From an uncultured virus (IMG/VR IMGVR_UViG_3300022885_000008) (taxonomy: Duplodnaviria > Heunggongvirae > Uroviricota > Caudoviricetes), in IMG/VR virus record IMGVR_UViG_3300022885_000008: a DNA stretch of 64,000 nt, one strand, 5' to 3'. The notes beneath the pieces were generated by a model that saw nothing but the letters and a program-made list of their open reading frames with translations, ran no database searches and was not told where the DNA came from. The translations under genes were made by a program, and so were the position numbers. Below are positions 1-37,181 of this stretch, in pieces (position 1 is the first letter of the stretch; each line of letters starts with the position of its first letter).

Positions 1-69
1 GGAGGGATTCGAACCCCCGAACGCCGCCTTCCAAAGACGGTCCGTGTGGCCAACTGCAGGAACACCTAG
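1..69 (-). tRNA. tRNA-Pro(TGG), 3' end outside window
   Basis: Minus strand: anticodon stem CCGTC/GGCGG with loop TTTGGAA; T arm GGGGG-TTCGAAT-CCCTC; C1 start; weak D stem. Confidence 0.75.
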
Positions 70-86
70 ATAGTGTTATCATCACC

Positions 87-125
87 AACAATACTAAGAT
101 ACGGAACATTACCCAATAATCCAAA
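87..125 (-). promoter_or_regulatory. Bacteroidota-type promoter (TTTG-N20-TATCTTAG)
   Basis: Copy of the repeated motif CGTATCTTAGTATTGTT with TTTG exactly 20 nt upstream. Confidence 0.75.
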
Positions 126-151
126 TCTTTTTGAAACTTTAACATATAGAT

Positions 152-877
152 TTAAATCCATCCGTTCTTATGTGCTGGAAATTCTGCATCGTAACCAGTC
201 AATAATTTACGTGATACGACCCTTTCAGACGCTCGCCTACGACCTTTTTCAATCTGTCGTTCATCCTTATTGGGCTTGTAACTATAATTCTTAAAAGCGC
301 CTAAGTGACGAAGTTGATTATATCGATTATATATCTCAGCTAACTCTTGTTCTATGATTTCATCATGTTCTGCATAATGAGTTACATATCTACGTTTATA
401 AACTATTTCATAATAATATTCTGGTACTGTACAAATATAGTGGCCCTTTGACCACCAATAATGCCCAGAAGCTTCTTGGTAAATGAACCAACTTTTTAGT
501 TCTTCATCATCTAATTCATCATATATATGCGCGTGGATACCATACAATGACCCAACTACGGCCCGGTTATTATAAGAGCCCCAACTTGCTTGAACTCTAT
601 CTTTCTTTTTGGGATTTTTAAGTGAACGTCTATGATCCTTTTTGTCTTTAATAACAAAACTTTTAGGATGACACATGTTAATTGCAGTCTGCAATTTATC
701 ACTATCCATTCTATTAGCCGCCTGTTTGGTCAATCGCAATTTAACATACCAACCATCTTTAATTGGTTTGTCATATGGTATCCACGTTACATTTCGTGAT
801 CGGCTATAATAATCATGCAATTGGACCTGAACATTATAAGCTTCTTTTTCCCGATGATATTGTTTATTTCTATTCAT
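152..877 (-). CDS. hypothetical protein
   Basis: 241-aa ORF on the coding strand between tRNAs. Confidence 0.75.
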   Translation of the reverse strand: MNRNKQYHREKEAYNVQVQLHDYYSRSRNVTWIPYDKPIKDGWYVKLRLTKQAANRMDSDKLQTAINMCHPKSFVIKDKKDHRRSLKNPKKKDRVQASWGSYNNRAVVGSLYGIHAHIYDELDDEELKSWFIYQEASGHYWWSKGHYICTVPEYYYEIVYKRRYVTHYAEHDEIIEQELAEIYNRYNQLRHLGAFKNYSYKPNKDERQIEKGRRRASERVVSRKLLTGYDAEFPAHKNGWI

Positions 878-891
878 ACTATTATGTACTT

Positions 892-967
892 TGGTAGGGG
901 TAACAGGACTCGAACCTGCGACTTCTGATTCCCAAAACCAGAGCTCTACCAGCTGAGCTACACCCCT
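892..967 (-). tRNA. tRNA-Pro(TGG), CCA encoded
   Basis: AGGGGTG acceptor, loop TTTGGGA, GTTCGAGTC T loop, ends ACCA. Confidence 0.9.
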
Positions 968-1088
968 ATAATTGACATCTTTTTGACGGTGTATTAACTA
1001 GTATACTTACCATCCTCCACAAAAGCGGTTACTTTTACTACACTAATCGCTAAATTAATGTGATGACTAAAAGCACGTAACAAAATTG

Positions 1089-1162
1089 AGCTCCATATCC
1101 GATTCGAACGGATGACCTGCTCATTACAAGTGAGCTGCTCTAGCCAACTGAGCTAATGGAGC
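1089..1162 (-). tRNA. tRNA-Thr(TGT)
   Basis: GCTCA-CTTGTAA-TGAGC anticodon arm; complete cloverleaf. Confidence 0.95.
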
Positions 1163-1179
1163 TTGTTTGATTTTTATCT

Positions 1180-1422
1180 TTATCCTTCGATGGGTTGATT
1201 AATCGGAAATATAGTTTTATGTATATCAACGGAATCTACCCAGCATTTGGAGTCCCAGAACGGTGGTGTTTCATACCAGTCAACGTAATAAGTCTGGCTG
1301 ATAGCTGCCCATTCTAACCAACGGGTTTCATCGTTTAAAGTTTTGGGAAAAAATAAGAATCGTTTGATAATTCTTGAATCATTTTCACTTGGATACCATT
1401 TCGGTTCTCGTGTCCATCTCAT
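1180..1422 (-). CDS. hypothetical Trp-rich protein
   Basis: 80-aa ORF in a tight gene string. Confidence 0.65.
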   Translation of the reverse strand: MRWTREPKWYPSENDSRIIKRFLFFPKTLNDETRWLEWAAISQTYYVDWYETPPFWDSKCWVDSVDIHKTIFPINQPIEG

Positions 1423-1577
1423 TTTAAATATTGTTTATATTTACGTTCCATTGATTCAACAAATGTAATAATATCATCTGCTATTTCTTCTCTTTCACCA
1501 TGCGGTACTTTTCCCAGAAGGTTACTTAATCTGTCTATAAGCATGGAAGCCACAATTGCGTCTACATCCCGTTCCAT
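1419..1577 (-). CDS. small hypothetical protein (52 aa)
   Basis: Hand-translated MERDVDAIVASMLIDRL...; stop overlaps next start (ATGA). Confidence 0.6.
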   Translation of the reverse strand: MERDVDAIVASMLIDRLSNLLGKVPHGEREEIADDIITFVESMERKYKQYLK

Positions 1578-1588
1578 AATAGTTTTGT

Positions 1589-1810
1589 TTAAGTGTTTAC
1601 AAATGTCTTTTCTTCTATTGCCTTACGTATGTAACGCATAAAAAGTATTGCTTTGTCTTTGCTTTTTAATACTCCATCACCAATATCTGATAGTGGAACT
1701 GGAAATAGGTAAAGTTGCTCGTCATGGAAGACGTTATAATAAAATATGCCATTCTTATAGAAAGCAAATTGTACGGTATTGTCTTTGACAATATCTTTAA
1801 TGTTAAACAT
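1589..1810 (-). CDS. hypothetical phage protein
   Basis: 73-aa ORF. Confidence 0.7.
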   Translation of the reverse strand: MFNIKDIVKDNTVQFAFYKNGIFYYNVFHDEQLYLFPVPLSDIGDGVLKSKDKAILFMRYIRKAIEEKTFVNT

Positions 1811-1850
1811 ATTATTTTATTTATGTAATCGGCCAAATTGCCATTCGGGG

Positions 1851-1935
1851 TGGGGCCCCAGAGATTCGAACTCCGAACGTATCTTACGTAAGTGATTTAC
1901 AGTCACCATGCTTCAACCAATTTGCATAGAACCCC
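1851..1935 (-). tRNA. tRNA-Tyr(GTA)
   Basis: GTGA-CTGTAAA-TCAC anticodon arm, long variable arm, GTTCGAATC. Confidence 0.9.
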
Positions 1936-1938
1936 GGT

Positions 1939-2742
1939 TTAAATTTTATATTTTATGTTCCATTGTTCAATTTTATACTTAAGTTCATCTATAGTAATTG
2001 AGCAATTTGTATACTTTTTTACGTTATTAGCGTGAATCATTAAGTTACAGTTTGCCGGGTGTGATATGATACCAGGTGGAATTCCTGCCGCAAATCCAGC
2101 ATTTACTGAAAACATATGGTCTCTAGATACACCCGTATGGTTATCACCTCTATTCTTTGCGGTGTACCATCCGTATTGCTCGATTAGTTTGAAATTAAAT
2201 TCATCTGAATAATCCGATAAATTGAAATTAAATTTTGTATCTAGTTGATATTTTCTATATTCTGATATGGTTTTTCGTGCGTATTTATTTCCACATAAGC
2301 GTGTACAAAATTTGTTATTTCTTTTTTTGTAATTGAGAGTGGTATTACATTGTTTACATCTATTCGGATGATGTTCATAGTATTCGAGCCACTCCGGTCG
2401 ACGTTTCCTATTAGAATACCTTATATTCTTTAATGCTTTACTTGATAACGGTTTTCTGTTTTCTACTATTCTATTTAAATTAGTATGGGTCGCTGCACAA
2501 GATTGACTACAGAATATATTTCGTCGTTTATCAAACGAAATCGTATGATTGCATTGTTTACAAAATGACGGATTTAATTCATATTCTTTTTTACTCACGG
2601 CTTTTTTTTGCTTAATGTAATCATGTAACCCCGCGTAACTTCTAATGTATTTATTTACATAATAGCTTCTACACGACAGCGAACAATAAATACGCTTACC
2701 TTCGGTGTTATTATTGCATTCTGTATTTTTACATTTAACCAT
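1939..2742 (-). CDS. HNH-type homing endonuclease with repeated CxxC...FC(S/T)xxC zinc fingers
   Basis: Three Cys-rich repeats; C-terminal SRDH...HPANC...H..N..K motif; free-standing between tRNAs. Confidence 0.7.
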   Translation of the reverse strand: MVKCKNTECNNNTEGKRIYCSLSCRSYYVNKYIRSYAGLHDYIKQKKAVSKKEYELNPSFCKQCNHTISFDKRRNIFCSQSCAATHTNLNRIVENRKPLSSKALKNIRYSNRKRRPEWLEYYEHHPNRCKQCNTTLNYKKRNNKFCTRLCGNKYARKTISEYRKYQLDTKFNFNLSDYSDEFNFKLIEQYGWYTAKNRGDNHTGVSRDHMFSVNAGFAAGIPPGIISHPANCNLMIHANNVKKYTNCSITIDELKYKIEQWNIKYKI

Positions 2743-2804
2743 ATTATTCCTTTATATATAAATATAAGGAAAGTGGAGAGCCACGTTTATGAAACGTAAT
2801 TTTC

Positions 2805-2882
2805 TGGTGGAGGTGGGGAAATTTGAATTCCCGATCATCGCATGCAAAACGACTGCTTTAGGCCAGACTAAGCTACACCCCC
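2805..2882 (-). tRNA. tRNA-Ala(TGC), CCA encoded
   Basis: G3-U70 pair, loop TTTGCAT, ends ACCA. Confidence 0.92.
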
Positions 2883-2885
2883 ATT

Positions 2886-3368
2886 TTAATTAATTAATCC
2901 ATTCTTAATACCACGGTGTATATAATTCGAATGAGCTATATTCTTTTCATTTGCGTAACCTATACTTAAGTGTAAACCAAAGTAAGGTCTTTCAGTTAAT
3001 CCAAGTTCTGTTCTAATTAGATGAAGCGAAGACCTTGATTCTTCAGTCACGTCTAACCACCAGTACTTGCCATCAGATTTTACATTTTCATCTAAGGTAA
3101 TTGTCAGAAGCTTTCCGTCCCATTTGTTTTTGATGGAATTCCAAGTATCTTCATCACCTGTAAATCTATCATTGATAAATGATATGTGGGCCCCTCTAAG
3201 CGGTTGGTTAAGAACTAAATTATACCGTTTTTGAATAAACCAAGCGTAGTAATTATCTACGTCACAATTAAACATAATCATCGATGTTCTTTTCCAGTAT
3301 GATTGTTTAGTATGCTTTTTGGTTTTATCCTTTGGATCAAATAGTATTTTACCTGTTATTGTAAACAT
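2886..3368 (-). CDS. 2H-phosphoesterase-like protein
   Basis: Two HxS motifs (GAHISF, GLHLSIG); start reset to MFTITG because the longer ORF runs through tRNA genes. Confidence 0.6.
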   Translation of the reverse strand: MFTITGKILFDPKDKTKKHTKQSYWKRTSMIMFNCDVDNYYAWFIQKRYNLVLNQPLRGAHISFINDRFTGDEDTWNSIKNKWDGKLLTITLDENVKSDGKYWWLDVTEESRSSLHLIRTELGLTERPYFGLHLSIGYANEKNIAHSNYIHRGIKNGLIN

Positions 3369-3383
3369 TACTAAAGTGAGTTG

Positions 3384-3456
3384 TAACGCGTACGGGATTC
3401 GAACCCGTGACTCCGGCTTGAAAGGCCAGTGACTTAGACCGCTTGTCGAACGCGTC
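3384..3456 (-). tRNA. tRNA-Glu(TTC)
   Basis: CTGGC-CTTTCAA-GCCGG anticodon arm; canonical cloverleaf. Confidence 0.95.
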
Positions 3457-3471
3457 GTTATTAAATAATTG

Positions 3472-3544
3472 CGGAACCTTCCGGTAACGATCCGGAATCT
3501 CAAGGGCTTCAACCGAGCGCATAGACCATCTTTGCTAAAGTTCC
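3472..3544 (-). tRNA. tRNA-Phe(GAA), atypical
   Basis: GGAACTT/AGGTTCC acceptor, loop TTGAAGC, imperfect anticodon stem, T loop ATCGTTA. Confidence 0.65.
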
Positions 3545-3551
3545 ATTTTTG

Positions 3552-3635
3552 CTGACACGGTGAGATTCGAACTCACGTTGGGATTTCTCCGGATGATTAA
3601 CAGTCATCTACCATCGGCCACTCGGTCACATGCCA
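3552..3635 (-). tRNA. tRNA-Asn(GTT) with long variable arm
   Basis: GATGA-CTGTTAA-TCATC; U1-A72, G73; extra GGA-GAAA-TCC hairpin. Confidence 0.88.
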
Positions 3636-3663
3636 AAATTTCGTTGTTAATGTGTTATCCACT

Positions 3664-3702
3664 AACAATACTAAGATACGCAATAATATCTGTATATACA
3701 AG
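3664..3702 (-). promoter_or_regulatory. Bacteroidota-type promoter (CTTG-N20-TATCTTAG)
   Basis: Repeated motif copy. Confidence 0.7.
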
Positions 3703-3716
3703 CCCTTTGCCAAACT

Positions 3717-4370
3717 TTAACAAATCTTTTTATTACCTATAAATCTACCCAAATTCCATCCTTCAGTTATATTATCTTCTTTATTTATTTTTTTATTTTC
3801 CGTTCCGTTCGTAATCCAACAAGTACCATATTGAGAATTAGATGTTCCTAATCCCTGGCCTTTACTAGATTCACTCATTTTCTTTTTAGCTGCGTCTGTG
3901 TGTAATTTTCCCTTCGGCCACGGATTATATTGGCGTTTCATTCTACCGTCCAATATGGCCTTTCGTCTACCGTTATTCAACCGGCCAATCATATATTTAC
4001 CCCATTTAGAATCAGATGCCCATTTATCTCTTAGAATTTCGGCCGCAGCGTATCCGCCCTTTCTAGCATTTTCAATGGAAAATCCACCGCGTCCACCAGG
4101 CTTAAGATTCATACATTTTTCATCTTTGATTAAACCCAAATTTACAATTTCAGATTCTCTTTCCATAAGTAGTTTTCTACTATCGAAATATTCTAAGATT
4201 TCTAAATTGAATTTATCTTTTCCGTGTTTTTTAATTGCACGTCTTAATCGTGTTCCACTACCCAAATACCCATCATTTAAGTCATTGGTTGAATGGGCTC
4301 CAATATAGAAATTTCCATTTCTTAAATCGGTTGTTTTATAAATGTAATGATATTGTTTTTCTTTCCGCAT
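3717..4370 (-). CDS. GIY-YIG homing endonuclease with NUMOD3
   Basis: YIYKTT...FYIGAH..YLGSG; HTDAAKKKMS. Confidence 0.9.
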   Translation of the reverse strand: MRKEKQYHYIYKTTDLRNGNFYIGAHSTNDLNDGYLGSGTRLRRAIKKHGKDKFNLEILEYFDSRKLLMERESEIVNLGLIKDEKCMNLKPGGRGGFSIENARKGGYAAAEILRDKWASDSKWGKYMIGRLNNGRRKAILDGRMKRQYNPWPKGKLHTDAAKKKMSESSKGQGLGTSNSQYGTCWITNGTENKKINKEDNITEGWNLGRFIGNKKIC

Positions 4371-4407
4371 GCATATAAATATACATTAGGTACAAAAAAC
4401 GTTCCAG

Positions 4408-4480
4408 AGCGCAATGTCGGATTCGAACCGCGTCCTCTGATTGGAAATCAGATGCTTTAGGCCACTAAGCTACATCGCGC
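4408..4480 (-). tRNA. tRNA-Gly(TCC), apparent 8/4 fold
   Basis: TCTGA-TTTCCAA-TCAGA; 8-bp acceptor GCGCGATG/CATTGCGC, shortened T stem, U73. Confidence 0.8.
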
Positions 4481-4633
4481 ATGTCACTTTACGTTTCAAA
4501 GTGTAAGCAGGTTTAGTCACTAACTTTCCTTTATCCGAATCTTTTACAGTTAATAATTATTACTGGATCCAAGGTAATAATTGCGGGGTATTATTTCGGG
4601 TTTCAATATAGGCTCCAACCTATACTAAGAATG

Positions 4634-4711
4634 TGCTACCGACTGGATTTGAACCAGTATTTTCAACCAGTTACCTTTATTCTACTTATCAGGTAGAGGG
4701 GATACGGTAGC
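4634..4711 (-). tRNA. D-arm-less tRNA-Ile(GAT)-like RNA
   Basis: Perfect acceptor GCTACCG/CGGTAGC, TCTAC-CTGATAA-GTAGA, ACTGG-TTCAAAT-CCAGT; only 7 nt where the D arm should be. Confidence 0.75.
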
Positions 4712-4726
4712 ATCAAGCTATTCAAT

Positions 4727-4781
4727 ATGTCAAAGAACCATCAACAGTACTAAGATAAGTAAAATTGATTGGAATCACAAA
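4727..4781 (-). promoter_or_regulatory. promoter plus boxA-like element (GTTCTTTGACAT)
   Basis: TTTG-N20-TATCTTAG followed by an rrn boxA-like 12-mer at 4727-4738. Confidence 0.65.
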
Positions 4782-4825
4782 CTATTAACGTTAAATAATT
4801 GTTAATAATGTGTGATTCATAAAAG

Positions 4826-4900
4826 CGGCTCGGACGGGATTCGAACCCGTGTCCTTCGCAGAGACAGTGCGCTATCCTTGACCAACTAGACCACCGAGCC
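4826..4900 (-). tRNA. tRNA-Asp(GTC)
   Basis: GCGCA-CTGTCTC-TGCGA arm, G73. Confidence 0.9.
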
Positions 4901-4906
4901 AATGTG

Positions 4907-4974
4907 TATTTAAAGAACAATGTTACGTGTACTGTAACAGTACTAAGATACTAATTTTTTACCGAATTTACAAA
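4907..4974 (-). promoter_or_regulatory. promoter plus boxA-like element (GTTCTTTAAATA)
   Basis: TTTG-N20-TATCTTAG with a boxA-like motif at 4907-4918. Confidence 0.65.
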
Positions 4975-4992
4975 TATTTTTGAAGTTTTTAC

Positions 4993-5025
4993 AAAAAAAA
5001 ATGGGAAGTTCTATTGAACCTCCCA
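4993..5025 (-). terminator. intrinsic terminator
   Basis: TGGGAGGTTC-AATA-GAACTTCCCA followed by a T-run. Confidence 0.85.
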
Positions 5026-5055
5026 CTTGGAATATAATTATATTATAAGCGGAGG

Positions 5056-5187
5056 TTATGTGGCCAATTCCTTTGTATCAAACACATTATTAGTGTTTAA
5101 ATTGGCGCGGGTCGGTTGGATTGGTTCCGTTCTATACGGGCCAGCAATCGCTTCGAGTCTACCTAGTTTATAATTTGTTGCTTTCAT
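5056..5187 (-). CDS. 43-aa ORF, possible leader peptide
   Basis: MKATNYKLGRLEAIAGPYRTEPIQPTRANLNTNNVFDTKELAT* directly before the terminator. Confidence 0.45.
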   Translation of the reverse strand: MKATNYKLGRLEAIAGPYRTEPIQPTRANLNTNNVFDTKELAT

Positions 5188-5220
5188 CTGTTATAAGTAT
5201 ATCGGTTTATTAAAACCGTG

Positions 5221-5291
5221 TTGCCCGCTTCGGGGTCGAACCGAATTAACAAGTCTTATGAGAACCTGTCCTTTTCCACTAAGCCGAGCAG
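5221..5291 (-). tRNA. atypical tRNA(CAT), Met or Ile2; possibly degenerate
   Basis: Loop CTCATAA, T arm TTCGG-TTCGACC-CCGAA, truncated D arm. Confidence 0.55.
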
Positions 5292-5294
5292 TGT

Positions 5295-5747
5295 TTATTT
5301 TTGTCTAGCGGCCCGTTTTCTTTGTTCTCTAATAAGAGCCGCTTCTTTTATTTTCTTTCTTGTTTCTGCGCTAGGTGATCCCCATTTTTTACCTGTAGAC
5401 CACTTTCCAATTTTAGCCTTAGTTTCATCTGTATGAGTTTTACCTTTGAAATGAGGTCCGCCTTTGCCGCCAATAGCTGAATTATAATTGGTATCAGTTG
5501 AAATAAAGCTTTCGGTTACAATCTCCATTTCCTTATCATTCATTTCATCTTCTGAATCAAATACAAACAATATGACTTTCTTAAAAGTTTGCCTTCCGTG
5601 TTTCTTAATAGCATTGTTTAAAGCTATACCTGATCCCAAATATGAATCATTTATTTTTTTGGTTTGGTGCTTTCCTATATAAATTTTATTATTTAATAAA
5701 TTTATAGTTTTATAAATGGTATAATATAACTGTGTTTCCTTCCGCAT
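5295..5747 (-). CDS. GIY-YIG homing endonuclease with NUMOD3
   Basis: TIYKT...IYIGKH..YLGSG; HTDETKAKI. Confidence 0.88.
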   Translation of the reverse strand: MRKETQLYYTIYKTINLLNNKIYIGKHQTKKINDSYLGSGIALNNAIKKHGRQTFKKVILFVFDSEDEMNDKEMEIVTESFISTDTNYNSAIGGKGGPHFKGKTHTDETKAKIGKWSTGKKWGSPSAETRKKIKEAALIREQRKRAARQK

Positions 5748-5783
5748 GTATATAAATATACATTGAGTCAGAAAACGATCGGG

Positions 5784-5856
5784 TGGCGGATGAAGGATTC
5801 GAACCTCCGACCTCCGGATTATGAGCCCGGTGAGCTGGCCACTGCTCTAATCCGCG
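5784..5856 (-). tRNA. initiator tRNA-fMet(CAT)
   Basis: CGCGGAT start with 1-72 mismatch, CCGGG-CTCATAA-TCCGG. Confidence 0.9.
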
Positions 5857-5874
5857 ATGTTTATTTTTATTGTA

Positions 5875-6905
5875 ACCTTGAGACTATAGGTTTTACACTG
5901 ATACTTTTGTTACCGTACCCATAAGGTGCTACCCTACAGTTAATAACTTATCCACTAACCCATCGGATTAGTATACCAGCAATACCGCCTTTTTTAAAGT
6001 GTGGCTTTTCACTTGTCATAATGAAACTACTCGACTTTCATCCTTTTCCTGACCTTGCGAGCCATTCATTCCTGCTAAGGAATTAGATGTGGAATTCAAT
6101 CAAATCATATCTGCCTTGCGAGCGTCAATGATTCTGTGTTACTTTTCAGTCACAGAATTAGGTAATTTGTTTTTCATTACCGTAGTGGCCTTTGCGTTTT
6201 GTTTATACTTGCGTATAATAGTGTACGAGTCGAACGTACTACCTTTCGTTTAGAAGACGAATGCTCTACCAAATGAGCTAACTATTGAAGTTATTTAAAT
6301 CCACCGAGATGTGCCACTACGGTCGCTTCATATCTTTTTGGGATACAAAATACAACACACCTCATGCGTTTCGGGCTACCAACCCTACTGTGCCATATTT
6401 CAAGATTAATAGGAATCTTTAACGATTCCGTTTACCTTTTATATTGAATAACCGCTTTTGTACTGGTGGTACTTTAACCGTTATTCTACAACTTGTCTAA
6501 TTTTGAGTTCGAAGATTTAGCGTGACATAGCAGGGTGCTAACCCTTTTGCTCTCACCGTGTGGCACCGAGCTTATCTTTCCCAAAGACTATTATCAATCA
6601 ACTTATTCATATCAACCAGTTTGGATCTGATTGCTGCGCTTGGGAGCGTAGTAAGATGTTGCTTGCTTAAATGAACTTATTGCTAAGCGGAAACGTGTGG
6701 AACTATTTCCTTTCATATTCTTACGAATACATATTCTTTTTTTAGACAATACACCTTATCGGCGGCTATGCCGTTCACGCGTCGATGTATTGCCAAATGG
6801 ATATCAAGCTACCCATATATTTTAAAACTACTTTTTGGAAGCCAAAAGCAACATTATCTATACTTCATCCCAGATTCCAAGTCTGAGCCTATAGTCTTAA
6901 AGACA
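5875..6905 (-). ncRNA. large structured ncRNA, GOLLD/ROOL-like, with embedded tRNA
   Basis: About 1 kb with no ORF; ends pair (5881-5890 with 6888-6897); many GCAA/GNRA hairpins; 11-bp helix 6179-6189/6313-6323; inside a phage tRNA array; family not confirmed. Confidence 0.7.
6215..6287 (-). tRNA. tRNA-Arg(TCT) embedded in the large ncRNA
   Basis: TTCGT-CTTCTAA-ACGAA; GTACG-TTCGACT-CGTAC; C1-A72 mismatch. Confidence 0.82.
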
Positions 6906-6938
6906 TATAAATTACATTTAGTTTAAAATGCTTTCATC

Positions 6939-7013
6939 ATGTTAAAGAACAAGATTCGGAACCTTTTCCGAACCAACAATACTAAGATACGTAATTTTCA
7001 TCGAAATACCAAA
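6939..7013 (-). promoter_or_regulatory. promoter plus boxB-like hairpin plus boxA (GTTCTTTAACAT)
   Basis: TTTG-N20-TATCTTAG; hairpin TTCGGA/TCCGAA at 6955-6972; boxA-like motif at 6939-6950. Confidence 0.7.
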
Positions 7014-7053
7014 TTTCTTTGGACTTTTTTTGAAAAAGTTATCCACATTGTAG

Positions 7054-7128
7054 AGCGGTAGGGTGGATATGAGCCACCGGCCTTCTAGTTGGTAACCAGA
7101 CGCTCTGACCAGACTGAGCTACTACCGC
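7054..7128 (-). tRNA. tRNA-Gly(ACC)
   Basis: TCTGG-TTACCAA-CTAGA; GCG/CGC top pairs and U73; variant T loop CTCATAT. Confidence 0.8.
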
Positions 7129-7134
7129 AAATGT

Positions 7135-7425
7135 TTTATCAAATTAGCCATGTTTCCATGTTACCGATTACGCCACGAGGAGGCTTTGATGTGTAATCGT
7201 CTGGGTTTCGTTGTTACTTGGACCTTATCTATAGTTGATCCTTTCACCGTTGTATGTTATTTTAAATCGCCGTCTGCCTAATACCCTTTACAGGGACGAT
7301 TATAATGTTAATGAATTCTTACGGTATTATTGCCCAGTGTTGGATTCCATACCAACATATCTTCCTAGAAAAGCGTCCTTTAGATGGGTTAACATCGGAT
7401 ATTGGACTAACTGAACACCGTCATC
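7135..7425 (-). ncRNA. candidate structured ncRNA (about 290 nt)
   Basis: ORF-free interval between a promoter and tRNA-Gly with several hairpins. Confidence 0.4.
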
Positions 7426-7431
7426 ATCACC

Positions 7432-7470
7432 AACAATACTAAGATACGCAATTTTCTAACAACTACCAAA
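7432..7470 (-). promoter_or_regulatory. Bacteroidota-type promoter
   Basis: TTTG-N20-TATCTTAG. Confidence 0.75.
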
Positions 7471-7562
7471 TTTTTAATGTTAAGAAACTGTTAAATGTTT
7501 TCATAACCTTTACCGTTCATATTGTAACATATAAGTATATGTAATTTTATAAAACGGGATTG

Positions 7563-7650
7563 GGTGCATAACGAGAATTGAACTCGCGTAATACTTTCGT
7601 ATCCCTGATTCACAGTCAGGTCCGGCTAACCAACATCCGGCTTACACACC
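7563..7650 (-). tRNA. tRNA-His(GTG) with long variable arm
   Basis: CCTGA-CTGTGAA-TCAGG, G-1/C73, extra GATAC-GAAA-GTATT hairpin. Confidence 0.88.
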
Positions 7651-7661
7651 ATATATAAATA

Positions 7662-8099
7662 TTATTTATTTAATAATAAATCTAATTCTTTCATATTTTT
7701 CTTAAGCAACTTATTTAGCCTATCAGATTCCTTTTTAAGCTTTCTGCTTGCTATGTCAATTCGTTTAAGTTCTGCCTGCTTTATTTCGGTCATGTTATTT
7801 TCAAGCCAAGTGTTATATTCAAGTAATTTGGATAAATACTTTAGTCGATCAGATTCATATACTTTTTCCCTTGCAGCGAAATGTTCATCAGGTTCATCGC
7901 CAAGCCAAGCCAATTTCATAATGAAATCACCAAAGCGGTCGGGCACGGCATCGATATATGCGAGATTAGGAACTACGTTATATTCTTTACATTTATCTAT
8001 CAATTCCTGTACAGTACAGTCATATAGGTCAAATGTCATTGATACCTGAGTCCGACGTACAGGCGCAATAGGTTCAATTGGCTTCTTTTTCATTCTCAT
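7662..8099 (-). CDS. hypothetical protein with coiled-coil C-terminus
   Basis: 145-aa ORF. Confidence 0.7.
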   Translation of the reverse strand: MRMKKKPIEPIAPVRRTQVSMTFDLYDCTVQELIDKCKEYNVVPNLAYIDAVPDRFGDFIMKLAWLGDEPDEHFAAREKVYESDRLKYLSKLLEYNTWLENNMTEIKQAELKRIDIASRKLKKESDRLNKLLKKNMKELDLLLNK

Positions 8100-8113
8100 A
8101 ATAACTGTTTGTG

Positions 8114-8187
8114 CACACCCAGAAGGATTCGAACCCTCGTCCCCGGGTTTGGAAGCCGGTATCCTGGACCAACTAGACGATAGATGT
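8114..8187 (-). tRNA. tRNA-Trp(CCA)
   Basis: Loop TTCCAAA, G73, 31-39 mismatch. Confidence 0.8.
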
Positions 8188-8225
8188 GTATTATTTATTA
8201 ATGTTTATATAAGTATAAGTTTATT

Positions 8226-8336
8226 TTGTGTCCAATTACCAGATATAAATACTGATATTGCTGAAACTTGAGTGTCTTTCTGTAGTACCATTATCTAATG
8301 TACCATCGAAGTCAAATGATACCCTTTGTTCGTCAT
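8226..8336 (-). pseudogene. HAD-family remnant
   Basis: VSFDFDGTLD motif out of frame with the upstream ATG, with an early stop. Confidence 0.4.
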
Positions 8337-8412
8337 TAGAAACAAGATACGTAATAATGTTCGTATTTACAAACTTTTCTGAAACTTTAACATATTTTTA
8401 TAATTATAATTG

Positions 8413-8485
8413 AGGCCCGGGCTGGATTCGAACCAGCGTAAATGGATTTGCAGTCCATCACCTATAGCCACTCGGACACCGAGCC
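8413..8485 (-). tRNA. tRNA-Cys(GCA)
   Basis: ATGGA-CTGCAAA-TCCAT, U73. Confidence 0.95.
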
Positions 8486-8520
8486 TTGTTGTATATAACT
8501 ATACAGTATAAAAGTTATTT

Positions 8521-8916
8521 TTATAGTAATCTTGCGAATCGTTTTGGAAGGTATACGTTATTCAGTTCTTTTGCACCTTCGAACAATGGACCTACTTGTT
8601 TGGGCCTTAACCCGGCTAAACCACACCCTATTTCAGTTACAAGGAACGTGAGGTCCGGTCTAGAGCGCGCGAATTCTACAAAGCGGTCTACGTATGGTTT
8701 CATCTGATCTAACGTTAGGGTACGTCTGATGGCCGAATCTTTGCTAGGTATGCCGTATGTCCTACCTTGCAGGCCTTCTGCCTGGCCGTACACAGCGCCC
8801 CATGTGAGCGCTTGGCGCGCGGCGCCTTTACCATGCCGGCCACCTTCGTTAGAGCCAAATACGAATACCTGATTTTCAGCTAGCGTTGTTATATTTTCTG
8901 GTGTATGTTTCATCAC
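8521..8916 (-). CDS. A1S_2505-family phage protein
   Basis: VFVFGSN.GGRHGKGAA and FLVTEIGCGLAG motifs. Confidence 0.8.
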   Translation of the reverse strand: MMKHTPENITTLAENQVFVFGSNEGGRHGKGAARQALTWGAVYGQAEGLQGRTYGIPSKDSAIRRTLTLDQMKPYVDRFVEFARSRPDLTFLVTEIGCGLAGLRPKQVGPLFEGAKELNNVYLPKRFARLL

Positions 8917-8934
8917 GTTAAATATGTAATTGGA

Positions 8935-9081
8935 TTAGCGCCGGCTTCTACGATTCCAAGTTTTCTGTTCGAGTAGAGTTCTGTCAAGTTTTTCTGTTAG
9001 TTCATGAATTAACCTTTCTAGTTCTTCAACTCTACTTTCTAGGACTTCGATTTTGTCAATAAGTTTCAGTTCAGCATCCAT
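8935..9081 (-). CDS. small coiled-coil protein (48 aa)
   Basis: Hand-translated MDAELKLIDKIEVLESRVEELE... Confidence 0.55.
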   Translation of the reverse strand: MDAELKLIDKIEVLESRVEELERLIHELTEKLDRTLLEQKTWNRRSRR

Positions 9082-9094
9082 TGTCTATTAGTTT

Positions 9095-9688
9095 TTATGG
9101 TATGTATAGATTGGTAAAGTTATCTTTATGTACTTCAACTTCAGGATAAAGTAAGCTAAATGCTTGTAAATTAAACGGTTTAGTTACATAATGATATCCA
9201 TTTTTCGATGGAATAATATCAATTAATTTATTACCTACTGGTAATATTGATTTAAGTTGTATCGGTAGGTTCATATTATACTTATCGTTATCAAATTCAT
9301 CAATATCAATAATCCATTTTTTACGTTCCTTTGGAGTACTGGCCCTTCCAACCGTACTGGTATATATTCTATGTGAGTAATCGGTTTGGTTTGACTTTAT
9401 TACCTTGAGCATAGCTTCCACAGAATTAAAAGCTACGTCATATGAGTTACGTACATTAATCCAGAAAGCTGCCCTGGCAGAAAACATCTCACATAACTTA
9501 ATAATTTCGGGTATAGTTTTATCATATTGCTCTACGCTGTAGATAAAATAATTCTTAACTATATACGAATTACGACCCAGGTCGGGATTTTCTTTTTTAC
9601 GTTGGATGACTTGTAGGTAATAGAAATCACCTGGGTCTGTAAACGTTAAAAAGTTATCCCTAATTTTGGTTATATTATCAGTCATCAC
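9095..9688 (-). CDS. hypothetical protein, AEP/primase-polymerase-like motifs
   Basis: WIIDID and SKNGYHY motifs. Confidence 0.5.
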   Translation of the reverse strand: MMTDNITKIRDNFLTFTDPGDFYYLQVIQRKKENPDLGRNSYIVKNYFIYSVEQYDKTIPEIIKLCEMFSARAAFWINVRNSYDVAFNSVEAMLKVIKSNQTDYSHRIYTSTVGRASTPKERKKWIIDIDEFDNDKYNMNLPIQLKSILPVGNKLIDIIPSKNGYHYVTKPFNLQAFSLLYPEVEVHKDNFTNLYIP

Positions 9689-10925
9689 CTAACAACTTAA
9701 AAATGTCATCAGTGCCGTTTATCTGTACATATCTTTGTACAACTTGCTTAACAAACGAACGTTCAGAATCATTTCCACCAGACGAATCATAATGAGGAAA
9801 TACACATACTTCACAAGATTCTTCCAATGTAAACCCATCTTCAATGAGCGATGTAAGTTCCACCGAATTCCGCGTACTAATGGGATGGTCAATTTTACCA
9901 TTTTCATTAGCTGCTTCCACCCGCGTGAGCGACACAATTTCACAAATAGCGTCAATCATTTCCGGTGCAACATCTGGGTATAATTTAGACAACAAACTGT
10001 TTTCCTGGTCATTGTCCAGTAGGTCCATTTCAATAATAGTAAATCGGTCAATTAGCGCCTTATCCATTTGACGTGTGCTGGTGTATTCATGTCCGATATT
10101 AGCCGTAGCGATGAAACAAACACCATCAGCTACCTTTACAGTAGGAGAGTCTGCATGTTCATCAATCCGTAAGTACCGCTGAGTTTCATCCAATACGGTC
10201 ATCAGAATATTTCCTGCTTCGGGATGAGCCCGGCTAAGTTCATCCAACAGAATCACCGCGTTTTCAGTCTGAATAGCCTGGATGAACAATGATTCAGCGA
10301 AAAAAGTTCCTTCATCTTTTGCGAAGTGAGTGTTTCCGATAAGTGTGGACCGAGGGTCCTGAGTTGCCCCAAGATTAAAGTAAAAGTTAGGACGTTCAAA
10401 TGCTTCGAATGCACTTCGGGCGGCCATTGTTTTACCACAACCAGCGGGCCCTGTCATCAGTACATTCTTACCACGTAGAATACTACGAACAAGATACTTC
10501 CATTTAATTTCACTGATTTTCAGCAATTCTGGCTTACGGTCCAATGAATCAACGTGTACGGCCTGGATGAAATCCATTTTTGCCATACTAATAGTTGAAG
10601 ATGGAACAGCCTTCGGCTTTGCCGATGTGCCTTCACCGGGTTGTGACGGCCGGACGGTGCCTGATGAACCTTTATACCGACACTTAGGCGGAATAGCTTT
10701 ATTTCCTACATAATCCATAGGTAGCTTCATACGATCCAAGCACAACTTTTGATTCCCAGCGGGTAGGTGTGTTTTAGTTAACCGAGCATTAATGCCACTG
10801 ACGAAACACTCACTAGCGTAGGTATCAGCATCAATGGATTGGTCCAGACACGAAGTATCTAAGATATTTCCATCACAGTCAACAAATTTAAGCGGCCCTT
10901 CTTCCGGCACTTTTAGAATAATCAT
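9678..10925 (-). CDS. MoxR/CbbQ-type AAA+ ATPase
   Basis: GPAGCGKT Walker A, ILLDELSR Walker B, ATAN, ALIDRF. Confidence 0.9.
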   Translation of the reverse strand: MIILKVPEEGPLKFVDCDGNILDTSCLDQSIDADTYASECFVSGINARLTKTHLPAGNQKLCLDRMKLPMDYVGNKAIPPKCRYKGSSGTVRPSQPGEGTSAKPKAVPSSTISMAKMDFIQAVHVDSLDRKPELLKISEIKWKYLVRSILRGKNVLMTGPAGCGKTMAARSAFEAFERPNFYFNLGATQDPRSTLIGNTHFAKDEGTFFAESLFIQAIQTENAVILLDELSRAHPEAGNILMTVLDETQRYLRIDEHADSPTVKVADGVCFIATANIGHEYTSTRQMDKALIDRFTIIEMDLLDNDQENSLLSKLYPDVAPEMIDAICEIVSLTRVEAANENGKIDHPISTRNSVELTSLIEDGFTLEESCEVCVFPHYDSSGGNDSERSFVKQVVQRYVQINGTDDIFKLLGDD

Positions 10926-11325: not shown

Positions 11326-12093
11326 TTAATTATTATCGGTGTCTTTTATGAAGTCTTCTATTTCTCCTTTACTGATATTAAAATCATTGATATGATTATT
11401 ATCCATTTGTATTTCTTCTTCTATAATGTTAGCGCTTGGATATGTACCTAACGAATCAAGGTTGACCGGATTCCCATCAATGTCCACTTCAACATTTTCT
11501 ATCATGTCTTTTTGACGCATGGCATCGGGAGCTTTAGTATGGTGTGGCTTATTATAATACCATTTCCTACGTCCCCAGGGATTACCTACGGTAACAAAAT
11601 AACAATTGTAACATAATATTTCTAAATTTTCAAGAGTGAAATCTTCCTTATCACCATTTTTATGCGACACTACAAGCGGATATTCACCGTCTGTTATTCT
11701 TGATTCACCGTATCCACAACAATCACATTCCTTAGCCTTTAGATTGGCTCTCCATAGTCTGTGCTTGAGTTTATGTAGCGGGTACTTAGGTACTTTGTTA
11801 TCCAAAATATCCTGTAAGGCCTTCATGGATGAACCTTTACCGCCCTTAGAACGCCGACCACGGGCTGTAGGCCTACCAATACCGATGCCCGTTGGGTTCA
11901 ATTGAATATCAAATAACGTTTTTTTTGTTCCCGCGTCAATATACTGTATTGCCCATTTTCTATATGTGTTATAACTAACCTTGAGCCATAGGGCAGCAGC
12001 CTTATTACTTTTCGTATGCTTCATAGCATCTCGGATTTCCGACTCAAGTATAATTATTGGCTTTCGGCCGCCGCGGCCATCTTTTCTAGGCAT
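11326..12093 (-). CDS. HTH plus HNH-like domain protein
   Basis: N-terminal HTH-like segment; CDCC...H.NGD...NLEILCYNC. Confidence 0.7.
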   Translation of the reverse strand: MPRKDGRGGRKPIIILESEIRDAMKHTKSNKAAALWLKVSYNTYRKWAIQYIDAGTKKTLFDIQLNPTGIGIGRPTARGRRSKGGKGSSMKALQDILDNKVPKYPLHKLKHRLWRANLKAKECDCCGYGESRITDGEYPLVVSHKNGDKEDFTLENLEILCYNCYFVTVGNPWGRRKWYYNKPHHTKAPDAMRQKDMIENVEVDIDGNPVNLDSLGTYPSANIIEEEIQMDNNHINDFNISKGEIEDFIKDTDNN

Positions 12094-12724: not shown

Positions 12725-14803
12725 TTACTTATTAATAAACAGTTTGTTAATTGATTTCGAAAGAGGGAGCAGTTCAGCCACCGATATGTCCTGCGAATCT
12801 TTTTCACCGTACATACGTTGGAATGTGGATAGATGATCGTTATGTACGTCATCATTGATAAAATAACTGAGTATTTTAATCCCACGGGCTTTCATTTTAT
12901 TTATTTCGTTACGAGTATATGCCTGGGCATACGCGCCAAGGAAGCTGCAGTACCCTCTTGCTGCAGCGGAAGTATATCGGCCGAAAGGCATTCCATCTGA
13001 AAAGTTTATGAAGTAACTTTGCCGATTGTTATTTGAATCTAAGATTTGCGATTGAATTGCTTCGAAGCAAAGGCCTTCGGGTGTAGACTGTCCATTAGGA
13101 TTAATAAATTTAAATAGATTCTTAATTTTACTAATCTTATCTTTATCGGAGTCATATGCTATTAATACAATCGGGTTAACAATATTGGTGTTTTTTGGGT
13201 TACATACCGATCGATAACTGATAACCACCCGAATATTATTAGACATTGAACAAGCTTTGGCGATAGCGGCAACTGCCGTTTGTGTATTGAGCCACTTAAT
13301 ACCGTACATTGATGCCGATGCATCGACTGTAAGATGAACAAATGCGTCTGAATATTTGCTGGCGCGATTTACTTCAAATACAATATCTGACCCATATCCA
13401 AGCGCGGATATCATTCGTTTGTCAATTCGCCCCTGTCGTTGTCGATTATACTTGGTATGAGTTTCATAATTACGAATCATTAACTTCTTACCTAGTGCCT
13501 TTCCGAGCGACAATCCAATATCAATATGGGTTTGATTTCGCGTTTCTCTACTGCATGAAAGTCCCTGGCTATTATTAAAACTACGTAGATATACATCAGT
13601 TTTCATAATATTTGCGTCAAATACATTAAGTACAATACACTGTGTCAATCCGCCTTTTTCAAAACCGTACATAGTAGACGTATTTACATCTACCTTAGAA
13701 ACATCAGAATTAGCCAATTGATTAATTTCTGCAGCTTGCTTCTTACTTATTGAAGTTTTTTTTATATTATCATTAATAAAGGCTTTTTGTACTTTAATAG
13801 CTTTATCCAACTTCTTTTGTAGAGTAGCGGATAATTTACTACTTGGAACAGGAGTAGAAGTGTCATCTGGACTGTCTTCGCCTTCCGTACTAGAGTCATT
13901 TGAATCATTTGAATCATCAGAGTCATTTGAATCATTTGAATCATCAGAGTCATTTGAATCATTTGAATCATCAGAGTCATTTGAATCATCAGAGTCACCT
14001 GAATCATCAGAGTCACCTGAATCACCGGATGTATCTTTATCTGGCTCCTGACTTTTTTGAGATGGAACGTTTACTATTGAATCATTAATAACCTTATAAA
14101 CATCCTGAGCGACAATAAAGGCTTCTTCAGTTGACTTAAGCCTAGCGATGTTACTGATATCAATCATTTCCCATACTTGTCTAAGTAAAGGAAGCGTATC
14201 CAAATTACGATTTGGATTGGTAAAGTTAATAATGTGAAACATATAATCATCAAATGACGTGGGGTCATTCTTTTCTCCAAGCTTCAAAGCTTTGTCGATT
14301 ATAGTATTATTGAAATATCGACTATAAAGTGCTTCATAGTATCCGGTGTAACCTGGCGAATTGGAATAGATAAATTTGTCAATTCTACGATCTTCAATTA
14401 TATTCAACAACGTCTTAACCGTTGATTTATGAAAATAATCATGAAACATGATACTATGCGGAGAAAATACAGTTTGAATATATTTAAAATCAGTTAATAG
14501 AATGTGACTACCTTCATGAAGCGCCAGACCTACTACTGAATCAAATGTTTTTTGTGATATATTAGACCCGATTGTGATATTTTCACCATCGGTATAACTA
14601 TTATCATTCGTACCATATGAAACGCCGATATCAGTACGATTGGTTACAATCCGTACAAAGTTAGATATGGCACGTTGATAGGAGGCCAATACTACAGGGT
14701 CCGCGAACCGTGCCGAAGCCACAGCTGTGTTCACGGGCATTCCGTAGTTGTTGTTATCTGAAAGCCAGAATGATGAATGTAGGTCCATGTTTGGTAGTGT
14801 CAT
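12725..14803 (-). CDS. HExxH metallopeptidase-like plus acidic linker plus vWA domain protein (likely MoxR partner)
   Basis: LALHEGSH, NIIEDRRID; VDASASM MIDAS, TPEG, FSDG. Confidence 0.85.
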   Translation of the reverse strand: MTLPNMDLHSSFWLSDNNNYGMPVNTAVASARFADPVVLASYQRAISNFVRIVTNRTDIGVSYGTNDNSYTDGENITIGSNISQKTFDSVVGLALHEGSHILLTDFKYIQTVFSPHSIMFHDYFHKSTVKTLLNIIEDRRIDKFIYSNSPGYTGYYEALYSRYFNNTIIDKALKLGEKNDPTSFDDYMFHIINFTNPNRNLDTLPLLRQVWEMIDISNIARLKSTEEAFIVAQDVYKVINDSIVNVPSQKSQEPDKDTSGDSGDSDDSGDSDDSNDSDDSNDSNDSDDSNDSNDSDDSNDSNDSSTEGEDSPDDTSTPVPSSKLSATLQKKLDKAIKVQKAFINDNIKKTSISKKQAAEINQLANSDVSKVDVNTSTMYGFEKGGLTQCIVLNVFDANIMKTDVYLRSFNNSQGLSCSRETRNQTHIDIGLSLGKALGKKLMIRNYETHTKYNRQRQGRIDKRMISALGYGSDIVFEVNRASKYSDAFVHLTVDASASMYGIKWLNTQTAVAAIAKACSMSNNIRVVISYRSVCNPKNTNIVNPIVLIAYDSDKDKISKIKNLFKFINPNGQSTPEGLCFEAIQSQILDSNNNRQSYFINFSDGMPFGRYTSAAARGYCSFLGAYAQAYTRNEINKMKARGIKILSYFINDDVHNDHLSTFQRMYGEKDSQDISVAELLPLSKSINKLFINK
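13892..14026 (-). repeat. 9-bp-unit in-frame tandem repeat encoding (D/N/G)DS tripeptides
   Basis: Reiterated GAATCATTT/GAATCATCA/GAGTCATTT units. Confidence 0.9.
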
Positions 14804-14970: not shown

Positions 14971-15165
14971 TTAATCAAAATACTTTTTTGCTAATTTAAT
15001 GGCCATTGGCTCATCGATTAGTCCTGCCTTATATAACTTTCTGTAATAGTTTGAATCTTCCGATGTATGGTCTTTGGCTATTTTTAATGCTAATTTAGCA
15101 TTATCTGTATGTTCCATTTCAACCGATGTACCAACTACCAGTTCACCACGATTTGGCTTACTCAT
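14971..15165 (-). CDS. DUF5661-like small protein
   Basis: G..VEMEHT...IAKDH..E...YY.KL motif. Confidence 0.65.
   Translation of the reverse strand: MSKPNRGELVVGTSVEMEHTDNAKLALKIAKDHTSEDSNYYRKLYKAGLIDEPMAIKLAKKYFD

Positions 15166-35531: not shown

Positions 35532-37181
<1,650 letters not shown>

Follow-up and report, generated by a model that had tools for sequence, protein, structure and literature searches.

A GOLLD RNA in a salt-lake phage with a tRNA-shaped module in its linker, and an acceptor-stem defect common among tRNAs nested in GOLLD RNAs

The minus strand at about positions 6897..5875 of the window (the whole 64-kb stretch of DNA that we analysed) very probably encodes a GOLLD RNA (Rfam RF02032), which is predicted to assemble as a cage with an inner tRNA module tethered to it. 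This copy is an ordinary member of the catalogued GOLLD family, and the layout with a tRNA in the linker is known already. What our analysis adds to the known picture is a defect of the acceptor stem that is particular to nested tRNAs, present in 15 of 18 of them and in 5 of 55 free-standing tRNAs. Based on this family survey, we think on balance that the module is a tRNA-shaped domain which remains covalently part of the RNA, and that it is not routinely released as a chargeable tRNA. The host element is a large phage, and the sequencing runs in which its DNA occurs are salt-lake metagenomes, with no RNA run listed among them. The features of the locus are compiled in Table 1.

Table 1. Features of the GOLLD locus and its surroundings in the window
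Feature	Position	Strand	Basis or remark
HNH-like ORF	11326-12093		
CCA-adding enzyme gene	15162-17075		
tRNA-Gly(acc)	7128..7053	(-)	upstream of GOLLD
Terminator-like hairpin with T-rich tail	6953..6974	(-)	between tRNA-Gly(acc) and GOLLD
Whole GOLLD RNA, ~1.0 kb	5875..6897	(-)	3' end 5875 from Rfam model; 5' end uncertain, ~6950 to 6815
AGACUAUAGG	6888..6897	(-)	complementary to 5890..5881
Variable 5' domain, 534 nt, outside Rfam model	6364..6897	(-)	fold and covariation
First hairpin of Rfam model	6306..6363	(-)	cmscan alignment, model positions 1-61
Linker-closing helix, 5' strand ACCGUAGUGGC	6313..6323	(-)	in 3'-side bulge of first hairpin
Variable linker (J13/15 in the papers' naming)	6190..6305	(-)	insertion relative to Rfam model positions ~62-130
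tRNA-Arg(UCU)-shaped module	6215..6287	(-)	ARAGORN; Rfam tRNA 59.9 bits (cut-off 29)
Hairpin UAUAC-GCAA-GUAUA	6204..6217	(-)	directly 3' of tRNA module, overlapping its last three bases
Linker-closing helix, 3' strand GCCACUACGGU	6179..6189	(-)	directly after linker
Conserved 3' domain core	5875..6181	(-)	cmscan alignment, model positions 131-416
tRNA-Met(cat)	5781..5857	(-)	starts 17 nt downstream of GOLLD 3' end

The Rfam GOLLD model matched positions 6363..5875 (-) over its full length (model positions 1-416 of 416), with a score of 171.2 bits and an E-value of 2.4e-46, while the gathering score of RF02032 is 150 bits. The match is 489 nt long, and not about 1 kb, because the model spans only the conserved 3' half of GOLLD. 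Apart from it, 14 Rfam matches in the 64-kb window reach the gathering level, every one a tRNA, and Rfam cmscan gave no match to ROOL at the gathering score anywhere in the window. ROOL is alike in being a large phage-associated RNA near tRNA genes, whose cage is reported to consist of RNA alone with a disordered linker inside, but it is unrelated to GOLLD in sequence and secondary structure. The original prediction, made from the letters of this DNA, had read the region as a large GOLLD-like member or a new class and had proposed a search with the Rfam GOLLD and ROOL models, and the search bears the first of these readings out. It had also foreseen that a full Rfam match would confirm the RNA and lower its novelty, which is the case since tRNAs in the GOLLD linker are already in print. 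The tRNA-less marine or lake copies reach about 300 bits on RF02032, whereas the window's copy reaches only 171 bits.

The RNA lies on the minus strand; the two copies of GCTCGCAAGG (6122..6113 and 6062..6053) and the tRNA are intelligible there only. It is co-oriented with its surroundings: all 15 tRNAs found by ARAGORN in the 64-kb window (892-8485) and 49 of 49 ORFs of at least 150 aa lie on this strand. A plus-strand RNA was considered and rejected, as its MFE (-256.3 kcal/mol) is weaker than that of the minus strand (-278.9) and the Rfam model hits the minus strand only. The sequence features of the original prediction are all present at the positions it gave, but the strand had to be corrected to minus. 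Among them are its hairpins, namely TATAC-GCAA-GTATA at 6217..6204, the two GCTCGCAAGG copies and GGAATC/GATTCC at 6429..6412.

The conserved 3' core contains a long-range helix (6180-6172/6026-6018), a CUAAU motif, two GCUCGCAAGG hairpins, GAGUA and GUGGAUAAG. In the cmscan alignment it ends with the 3'-terminal hairpin CCU-AUAGUCUCA-AGG (5890..5876 (-)), whose loop differs from the RF02032 consensus GUAAUCUCA but agrees with it at seven of nine positions. The first hairpin of the model has an outer stem (6363-6356/6313-6306) and an inner stem that ends in the A-rich loop CCCAAAAAG, for which the consensus is UCAAAAG; its stems are paired in the same alignment. Going by the numbering as given in the papers, this hairpin is probably P13/P14 with L14.

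The linker behind this hairpin is closed by a helix of 11 Watson-Crick pairs, 6323-6313/6189-6179. As ACCGUAGUGGC lies in the bulge of the first hairpin and GCCACUACGGU past the linker, the helix forms a pseudoknot relative to the outer stem of that hairpin, and the final 2-3 bases of GCCACUACGGU are shared with the long-range helix that follows in the Rfam model. It had been noticed in the original prediction as an 11-bp helix enclosing the tRNA, and it is not only present but also covarying. In an alignment of four sequences onto which the window's MFE helices were mapped (the window and its relatives L060, L063 and L006; here referred to as A2), 7 of the 11 pairs are compensatory, with changes on both sides, and 88.6% of cells are paired. 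All 9 tRNA-bearing GOLLDs that we inspected have an equivalent helix, with a different sequence each time. When the best helix was sought within each of 22 GOLLD sequences, its mean length was 7.3 Watson-Crick bp, against 4.4 bp in the control that pairs a 5' strand with the 3' strand of another sequence. At least 6 Watson-Crick bp were obtained in 18 of these 22, and in the other four (L014, L048, L055 and L061) the helix was not found, the anchor-based extraction being suspected as faulty there. The helix also occurs in the tRNA-less GOLLDs L020, L028 and L042 and is thus a feature of the GOLLD family. It is probably the published P15, since the order of the strands fits the names P13, P14, P15 and J13/15 as they appear in the papers' numbering.

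Within the linker we found the tRNA module, a GCAA-capped hairpin and a conserved AAAACGCAAAG motif. The tRNA-Arg(TCT) with C1-A72 and no CCA that was claimed earlier is confirmed by ARAGORN and by the Rfam tRNA model, and the MFE fold of the module is likewise a cloverleaf, with position 1 unpaired. The acceptor stem has 6 bp plus the C1.A72 mismatch in place of seven full pairs, while the D, anticodon and T arms are intact. The anticodon loop has 7 nt, with U33 and A37 presumably in place. The CCA is not encoded, which is uninformative in this phage because 12 of the 14 free tRNAs of the window lack it as well. A mismatch of the C1.A72 type also occurs in two of the three free tRNA-Met(cat) genes surveyed, and the window's own tRNA-Met has a mismatch at pair 2-71. 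Where the window has the hairpin UAUAC-GCAA-GUAUA, L060 and L063 have hairpins of other sequence, as judged by eye from A2.

We then compared nested with free-standing tRNAs as called by ARAGORN at its default threshold on positions 1-10000 of the window and on 21 viral and 22 metagenome loci. After removal of L052 and L065, which repeat L004, and with identical tRNAs counted once, there were 18 nested and 55 free-standing tRNAs. An acceptor stem with at least one non-pair was present in 15/18 nested and 5/55 free tRNAs (Fisher p 6.7e-9; the 18 are only partly independent, since their GOLLDs are related), and three of the five free cases are tRNA-Met(cat). The other stems gave no such excess, with non-pairs in 0/18 nested versus 12/55 free tRNAs for the D stem, 3/18 versus 15/55 for the anticodon stem and 1/18 versus 4/55 for the T stem. 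As the D, anticodon and T stems are intact, the defect is specific to the acceptor end and does not reflect general decay. Moreover, an anticodon loop other than 7 nt was seen in 2/18 nested versus 0/55 free tRNAs, with loops of 6 and 8 nt, and the nested anticodons include tta, atg (twice) and att (twice). Calls ending in CCA numbered 2/18 among nested tRNAs (L058 and L068) versus 35/55 among free ones, and three of the 18 nested tRNAs have a fully paired acceptor stem (L004, L017 and L058).

A tRNA-shaped fold in a larger RNA, serving without decoding, is also seen in the viral 3' TLS and in the tRNA-like domain of tmRNA. These modules keep a chargeable acceptor end, whereas the surveyed GOLLD modules lose precisely that end. 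Searches of the literature for GOLLD together with acceptor stems or tRNA-like elements did not turn up the acceptor-stem defect of nested tRNAs, Weinberg 2009 and Morgado 2020 lying outside that scope. As for the frequency of the layout, scanning 42 of 49 viral, 20 of 24 metagenome and 9 of 9 genome-bin loci gave 24, 13 and 4 GOLLD hits, of which 11, 9 and 2, respectively, enclose an Rfam tRNA. All of these frequencies are biased upward because the search patterns were designed on tRNA-bearing copies. The four genome-bin hits belong to Saprospiraceae and Limisphaerales MAGs.

The modules of the closest relatives vary further. The aligned anticodon is UCU in the window and UUU in L063, so it is not kept across orthologous copies; in L060 a GAAA tetraloop closes the anticodon stem in place of the anticodon loop, and L006 is without the 3' strand of the acceptor and gave no tRNA call. 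The window's module is the best preserved in its clade, its sole mismatch being at 1-72. In addition, run X7 contains a 32.5-kb contig of a relative about 80% alike, in which the 170 bases at 6124-6293 are swapped for 166 other letters; contig cover in runs X4-X7 is patchy, and holes in it were given no weight. The series of Arg, Lys, tetraloop-capped and truncated modules offers a natural test of whether the cage needs an inner tRNA, and of release.

Cages of this family have been described before. The env-38 GOLLD was solved as a 14-mer cage (Kretsch et al., 10.1101/2024.12.08.627333), the Streptococcus agalactiae GOLLD is reported as a 12-mer at full length and a 10-mer for its 3' domain (PMC12990946), and according to the same two sources the embedded tRNAs of GOLLD sit in J13/15 and are directed into the cage interior. 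Like both of these, the window's RNA has a 3' domain matched end to end and a 5' domain that is structured but less conserved; a variable linker separates the first hairpin from the 3' core, and the surroundings are those of a phage with adjoining tRNA genes. By homology to these two, its copies would assemble protein-free into a closed cage of 10 to 14 copies, with the 5' domains as caps, the 3' domains as rings, and the linker and tRNA module facing the interior. The pseudoknot helix would clamp the base of the linker, with the cloverleaf and the small GNRA hairpin inside.

A tRNA-shaped element in the same linker is also described for mycobacteria. In a 2026 review (PMC12990946), J13/15 is given as the site of a tRNA-Phe, after Morgado 2020. 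Behra et al. (PMC6582537) report that a Mycobacterium GOLLD contains a "pseudo tRNA gene", and in their northern blot, the only one published, no separate transcript from it was detected. As described, the mycobacterial GOLLD sits in a horizontally moving tRNA cluster with an HNH endonuclease gene, and the window has an HNH-like ORF. In contrast to it, the window's copy belongs to a salt-lake phage and not to an actinobacterial chromosome, and its anticodon is Arg(UCU).

The acceptor-specific defects in 15 of 18 nested tRNAs, together with the changed anticodon and the GAAA loop of the relatives, favour a displayed domain over an ordinary tRNA gene. Therefore the survey leans to display over excision, although the matter is not settled for the window's copy. 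Selection would then keep the body of the module (the D, anticodon and T arms, and hence the elbow) and not its acceptor end, CCA or anticodon identity, and candidate partners of the tethered modules would be factors that recognise the tRNA elbow or body. More tentatively, the acceptor end of linker tRNAs might be selectively disabled so that tRNA-processing enzymes spare the cage RNA, in which case 10-14 tethered tRNA bodies inside the cage could act as bait or docking site and would not be stored precursors. Such a disabled acceptor would consist of a frayed 1-72/2-71 region without CCA, next to a freely drifting anticodon, and the window's copy, with C1.A72 alone, would be an early or intermediate state. 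If the acceptor-stem defect holds, it argues against the published idea that GOLLD stores a tRNA precursor, proposed as "inhibited storage" in PMC12990946.

That idea, as put forward in the review, presumes a real tRNA, and it accords with a reading that we regard as rather unlikely here, namely that the module is a working tRNA-Arg(UCU) gene whose precursor is at the same time the GOLLD transcript. RNase P and a 3' nuclease would excise the tRNA and the phage CCA-adding enzyme would complete it, with the GOLLD halves either held by the first-hairpin stem and the pseudoknot or discarded. For the window's copy much speaks in its favour: the four arms are intact save pair 1-72, the loop is canonical, and the module is recognised by the Rfam tRNA model well above the cut-off. 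It is the sole tRNA-Arg among the tRNAs of the 64-kb window, AGA is the commonest Arg codon there (242/684, 35%) and a CCA-adding enzyme is encoded, so that a released working tRNA-Arg is quite possible in this phage and has to be taken seriously. The three nested tRNAs with fully paired acceptor stems and the two that end in CCA fit as well. On the other hand, excision would sever the RNA between its two domains, the orthologous modules of the closest relatives cannot decode or differ in anticodon, and for the mycobacterial pseudo-tRNA, as reported, no separate transcript was detected. The acceptor-specific defect of nested tRNAs also stands against a working gene, and we keep to the attached, displayed domain.

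It seems improbable that the tRNA is a passenger, that is, one that landed or was duplicated in a permissive linker and is decaying neutrally without contributing to GOLLD. The linker does vary in length and content, the module of L006 is partly lost, the relative from run X7 has a different linker, and the highest scores, about 300 bits, belong to tRNA-less GOLLDs (L010, L022, L025, L026, L029, L037 and L042). But neutral decay should strike all four stems, whereas in nested tRNAs the damage is confined to the acceptor and the three remaining stems are at least as intact as in free ones. The module also sits at the same place in sequences that are only about 60% identical.

Two claims about the ends of the RNA fared less well. 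The original prediction held that the ends pair, and a 10-bp complement does exist between AGACTATAGG at 5881-5890 and CCTATAGTCT at 6888-6897, but it is near chance and absent from the relatives, so the claim of a meaningful feature does not stand. That it is a genuine closing helix, such as a processing stem joining the transcript ends as in rRNA precursors, is quite improbable. The complement is perfect over 10 bp and lies exactly at the Rfam 3' end, and when the upstream 750 nt were shuffled 1000 times, a perfect helix of at least 10 bp with the same 40-nt tail arose just 35 times. A complement of 12 bp (11 Watson-Crick) also links the 3' end of L031 to a position 478 nt ahead of the model start. 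However, about 0.5 perfect 10-bp inverted repeats per kb are expected by chance, and the helix was not found in L060, L063 or L006: in A2 its columns have 55% of cells paired (slid controls 35-42%), made up of a fully paired window and background pairing in the three relatives. Its formation would moreover open the conserved hairpin at the 3' end of the Rfam model, with which it competes and whose loop, if it is L27 as we infer, makes many tertiary contacts according to the published description. The complement is probably due to chance or specific to this lineage.

The second claim, that of an own promoter, was not borne out either, as a sigma-70 scan of the minus strand at 6960-6898 gave no site with at least 9/12 matches. 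A short upstream motif common with L060 has 3 matches in the window, no more than chance would give, as 33 of 100 shuffles reach that number. The terminator-like hairpin at 6974..6953 nevertheless suggests a separate transcription start for GOLLD.

The 5' domain is less conserved but structured. Positions 6900..6364 (537 nt) have an MFE of -139.7 kcal/mol, with a z of -3.37 against 100 dinucleotide shuffles, and the hairpins include a GNRA-capped one at about 6730..6712 and the GGAATC/GATTCC hairpin. In BLAST searches against the collected loci, a common 5' domain was found in L060 (64.6% identity to the window over 989 nt), L063 (66.5% over 878 nt) and L006 (68.4% over 646 nt; the sequence of L007 is identical to that of L006), with the homology beginning near window position 6827. 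L060 and L063 also score above the Rfam GOLLD cut-off, with 171.2 and 156.5 bits. Compared with the 420 nt reported for env-38, the 5' domain of the window is longer, at about 534 nt, and is alignable only to these three metagenomic relatives.

A covariation analysis of homologues, which had been suggested as a check, found covariation with all three. In A2, whose tested structure derives from the window's own fold, 70.6% of cells are paired, versus 35-42% in slid controls with partners shifted by 1-3 columns, and 64 pairs change on both sides, versus 19-27. None of five pairing measures was reached by any of 500 shuffles. Helices 9, 19 and 20 are paired in 87-100% of cells. Covariation support begins only at about 6815 and continues downstream; the 5'-most helices 2-5 in A2 are without it, and those proposed for 6886-6830 are paired in just 50-64% of cells, so the 5' end of the GOLLD is not fixed. 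A new class of large RNA, the other option of the original prediction, or a ROOL-type RNA might be suspected from these 534 nt, which matched no Rfam model and found BLAST matches in the three relatives only, but it is refuted by the full-length RF02032 match at 171.2 versus 150 bits and the missing ROOL match at the gathering score, and a variable 5' domain is already described as a property of GOLLD (Kretsch et al., 10.1101/2024.12.08.627333).

Among the records searched, the closest to the window is the 37-kb virus fragment G001, in which GOLLD is absent. In a comparison with 50,697 phage records, the query DNA matched by its two tRNAs alone, and 0 of the 19 matching records cover 80% of the query. 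No relatives were obtained from viral_contigs via the neighbouring AAA/CobS-like protein, and a scan of the same set with clade-specific 22-mers returned two contigs, both known already. The window's copy adds a well-delimited tRNA-bearing GOLLD from a salt-lake phage, with three alignable relatives.

The surroundings of the RNA are those of a phage tRNA island, as described for GOLLD, which is known as a long transcript that increases during phage lysis. In agreement with the earlier claim of no ORF, 5748..7661 holds no ORF of at least 60 aa on either strand. The island carries GIY-YIG, NUMOD3 and HNH-like (homing-endonuclease-like) ORFs as well as the CCA-adding enzyme, and beyond it the window encodes a phage DNA polymerase, a ribonucleotide reductase, the helicase DnaB, GroEL, glycosyltransferases and an endolysin-like protein. 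A tRNA-Met is near the GOLLD both here and in env-38, the window's GOLLD lying 17 nt upstream of it and env-38, as reported, downstream of a Met-tRNA. In the window, 5' processing of this tRNA-Met(cat) would cut the transcript no more than 17 nt past the GOLLD 3' end.

The window phage encodes a CCA-adding enzyme (see table), which fits the lack of an encoded CCA in 12 of the 14 free (stand-alone) tRNAs of the island. Some tRNAs of this island are unusual in anticodon or length, and the tRNA-Gly(ACC) is also present, in two copies, in L063, a close relative of the window GOLLD. Ochre-suppressor-type tRNAs (anticodon UUA) were observed at two fetched loci; one of them lies inside the GOLLD linker, and the other is free-standing and adjoins GOLLD.

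Features of the window and of fetched viral, metagenome or genome-bin loci (L-numbers)
Locus	Feature	Position	Strand	Remark
Window	tRNA-Asn	3551-3635	-	85 nt, unusually long for tRNA-Asn
Window	GIY-YIG, NUMOD3, HNH_3	3717-4370, 5295-5747, 11326-12093	-	domain matches
Window	16th tRNA	4634-4711	-	Rfam call only, 37.8 bits; absent from ARAGORN output
Window	tRNA-Gly(ACC)	7053-7128	-	A at position 34, unusual anticodon
Window	tRNA-His	7562-7649	-	88 nt, unusually long for tRNA-His
Window	AAA_5 ATPase ORF	9678-10925	-	matches PHROG labelled porphyrin biosynthesis
Window	692-aa ORF	12725-14803	-	weak match to PHROG labelled cobalamin biosynthesis protein
Window	CCA-adding enzyme	15162-17075	-	PolyA_pol head, HD domain; PHROG tRNA nucleotidyltransferase
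Window	GroEL, phage-encoded	35532-37172	-	507 bits to its PHROG
L005	tRNA, anticodon UUA	1597-1667		
L074	tRNA, anticodon UUA	1825-1899		
L016	tmRNA, phage-encoded	1-303		
L039	tmRNA, phage-encoded	2434-2784		
L019	two group I introns	2349-2652, 2812-3069		viral contig

GOLLD matches above the gathering score were also found on contigs binned into MAGs (L078, L081, L083 and L082), three of them as Saprospiraceae and one as Limisphaerales; this binning hints weakly at such hosts for the tRNA-bearing GOLLD subfamily. Among the tRNA-less high-scoring GOLLDs, an 8-nt complement (GUUGAGAU) of AUCUCAGC/AAC, the conserved terminal loop, recurs in the 5' domain of L010, L022, L026 and L037, where it precedes the start of the Rfam model by about 145-160 nt. 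This complementarity could represent a contact, or merely common ancestry.

On two viral contigs that are unrelated, a tmRNA gene and GOLLD are no more than about 1 kb apart. The contig with two group I introns contains no GOLLD match, although the 3'-motif pattern had fetched it. As for the other protein genes of the window phage, the AAA_5 ATPase ORF and the 692-aa ORF might, at a guess, form a CobS/CobT-like pair, and the ORFs with GIY-YIG, NUMOD3 and HNH_3 matches are homing-endonuclease-like and dispersed across the tRNA island.
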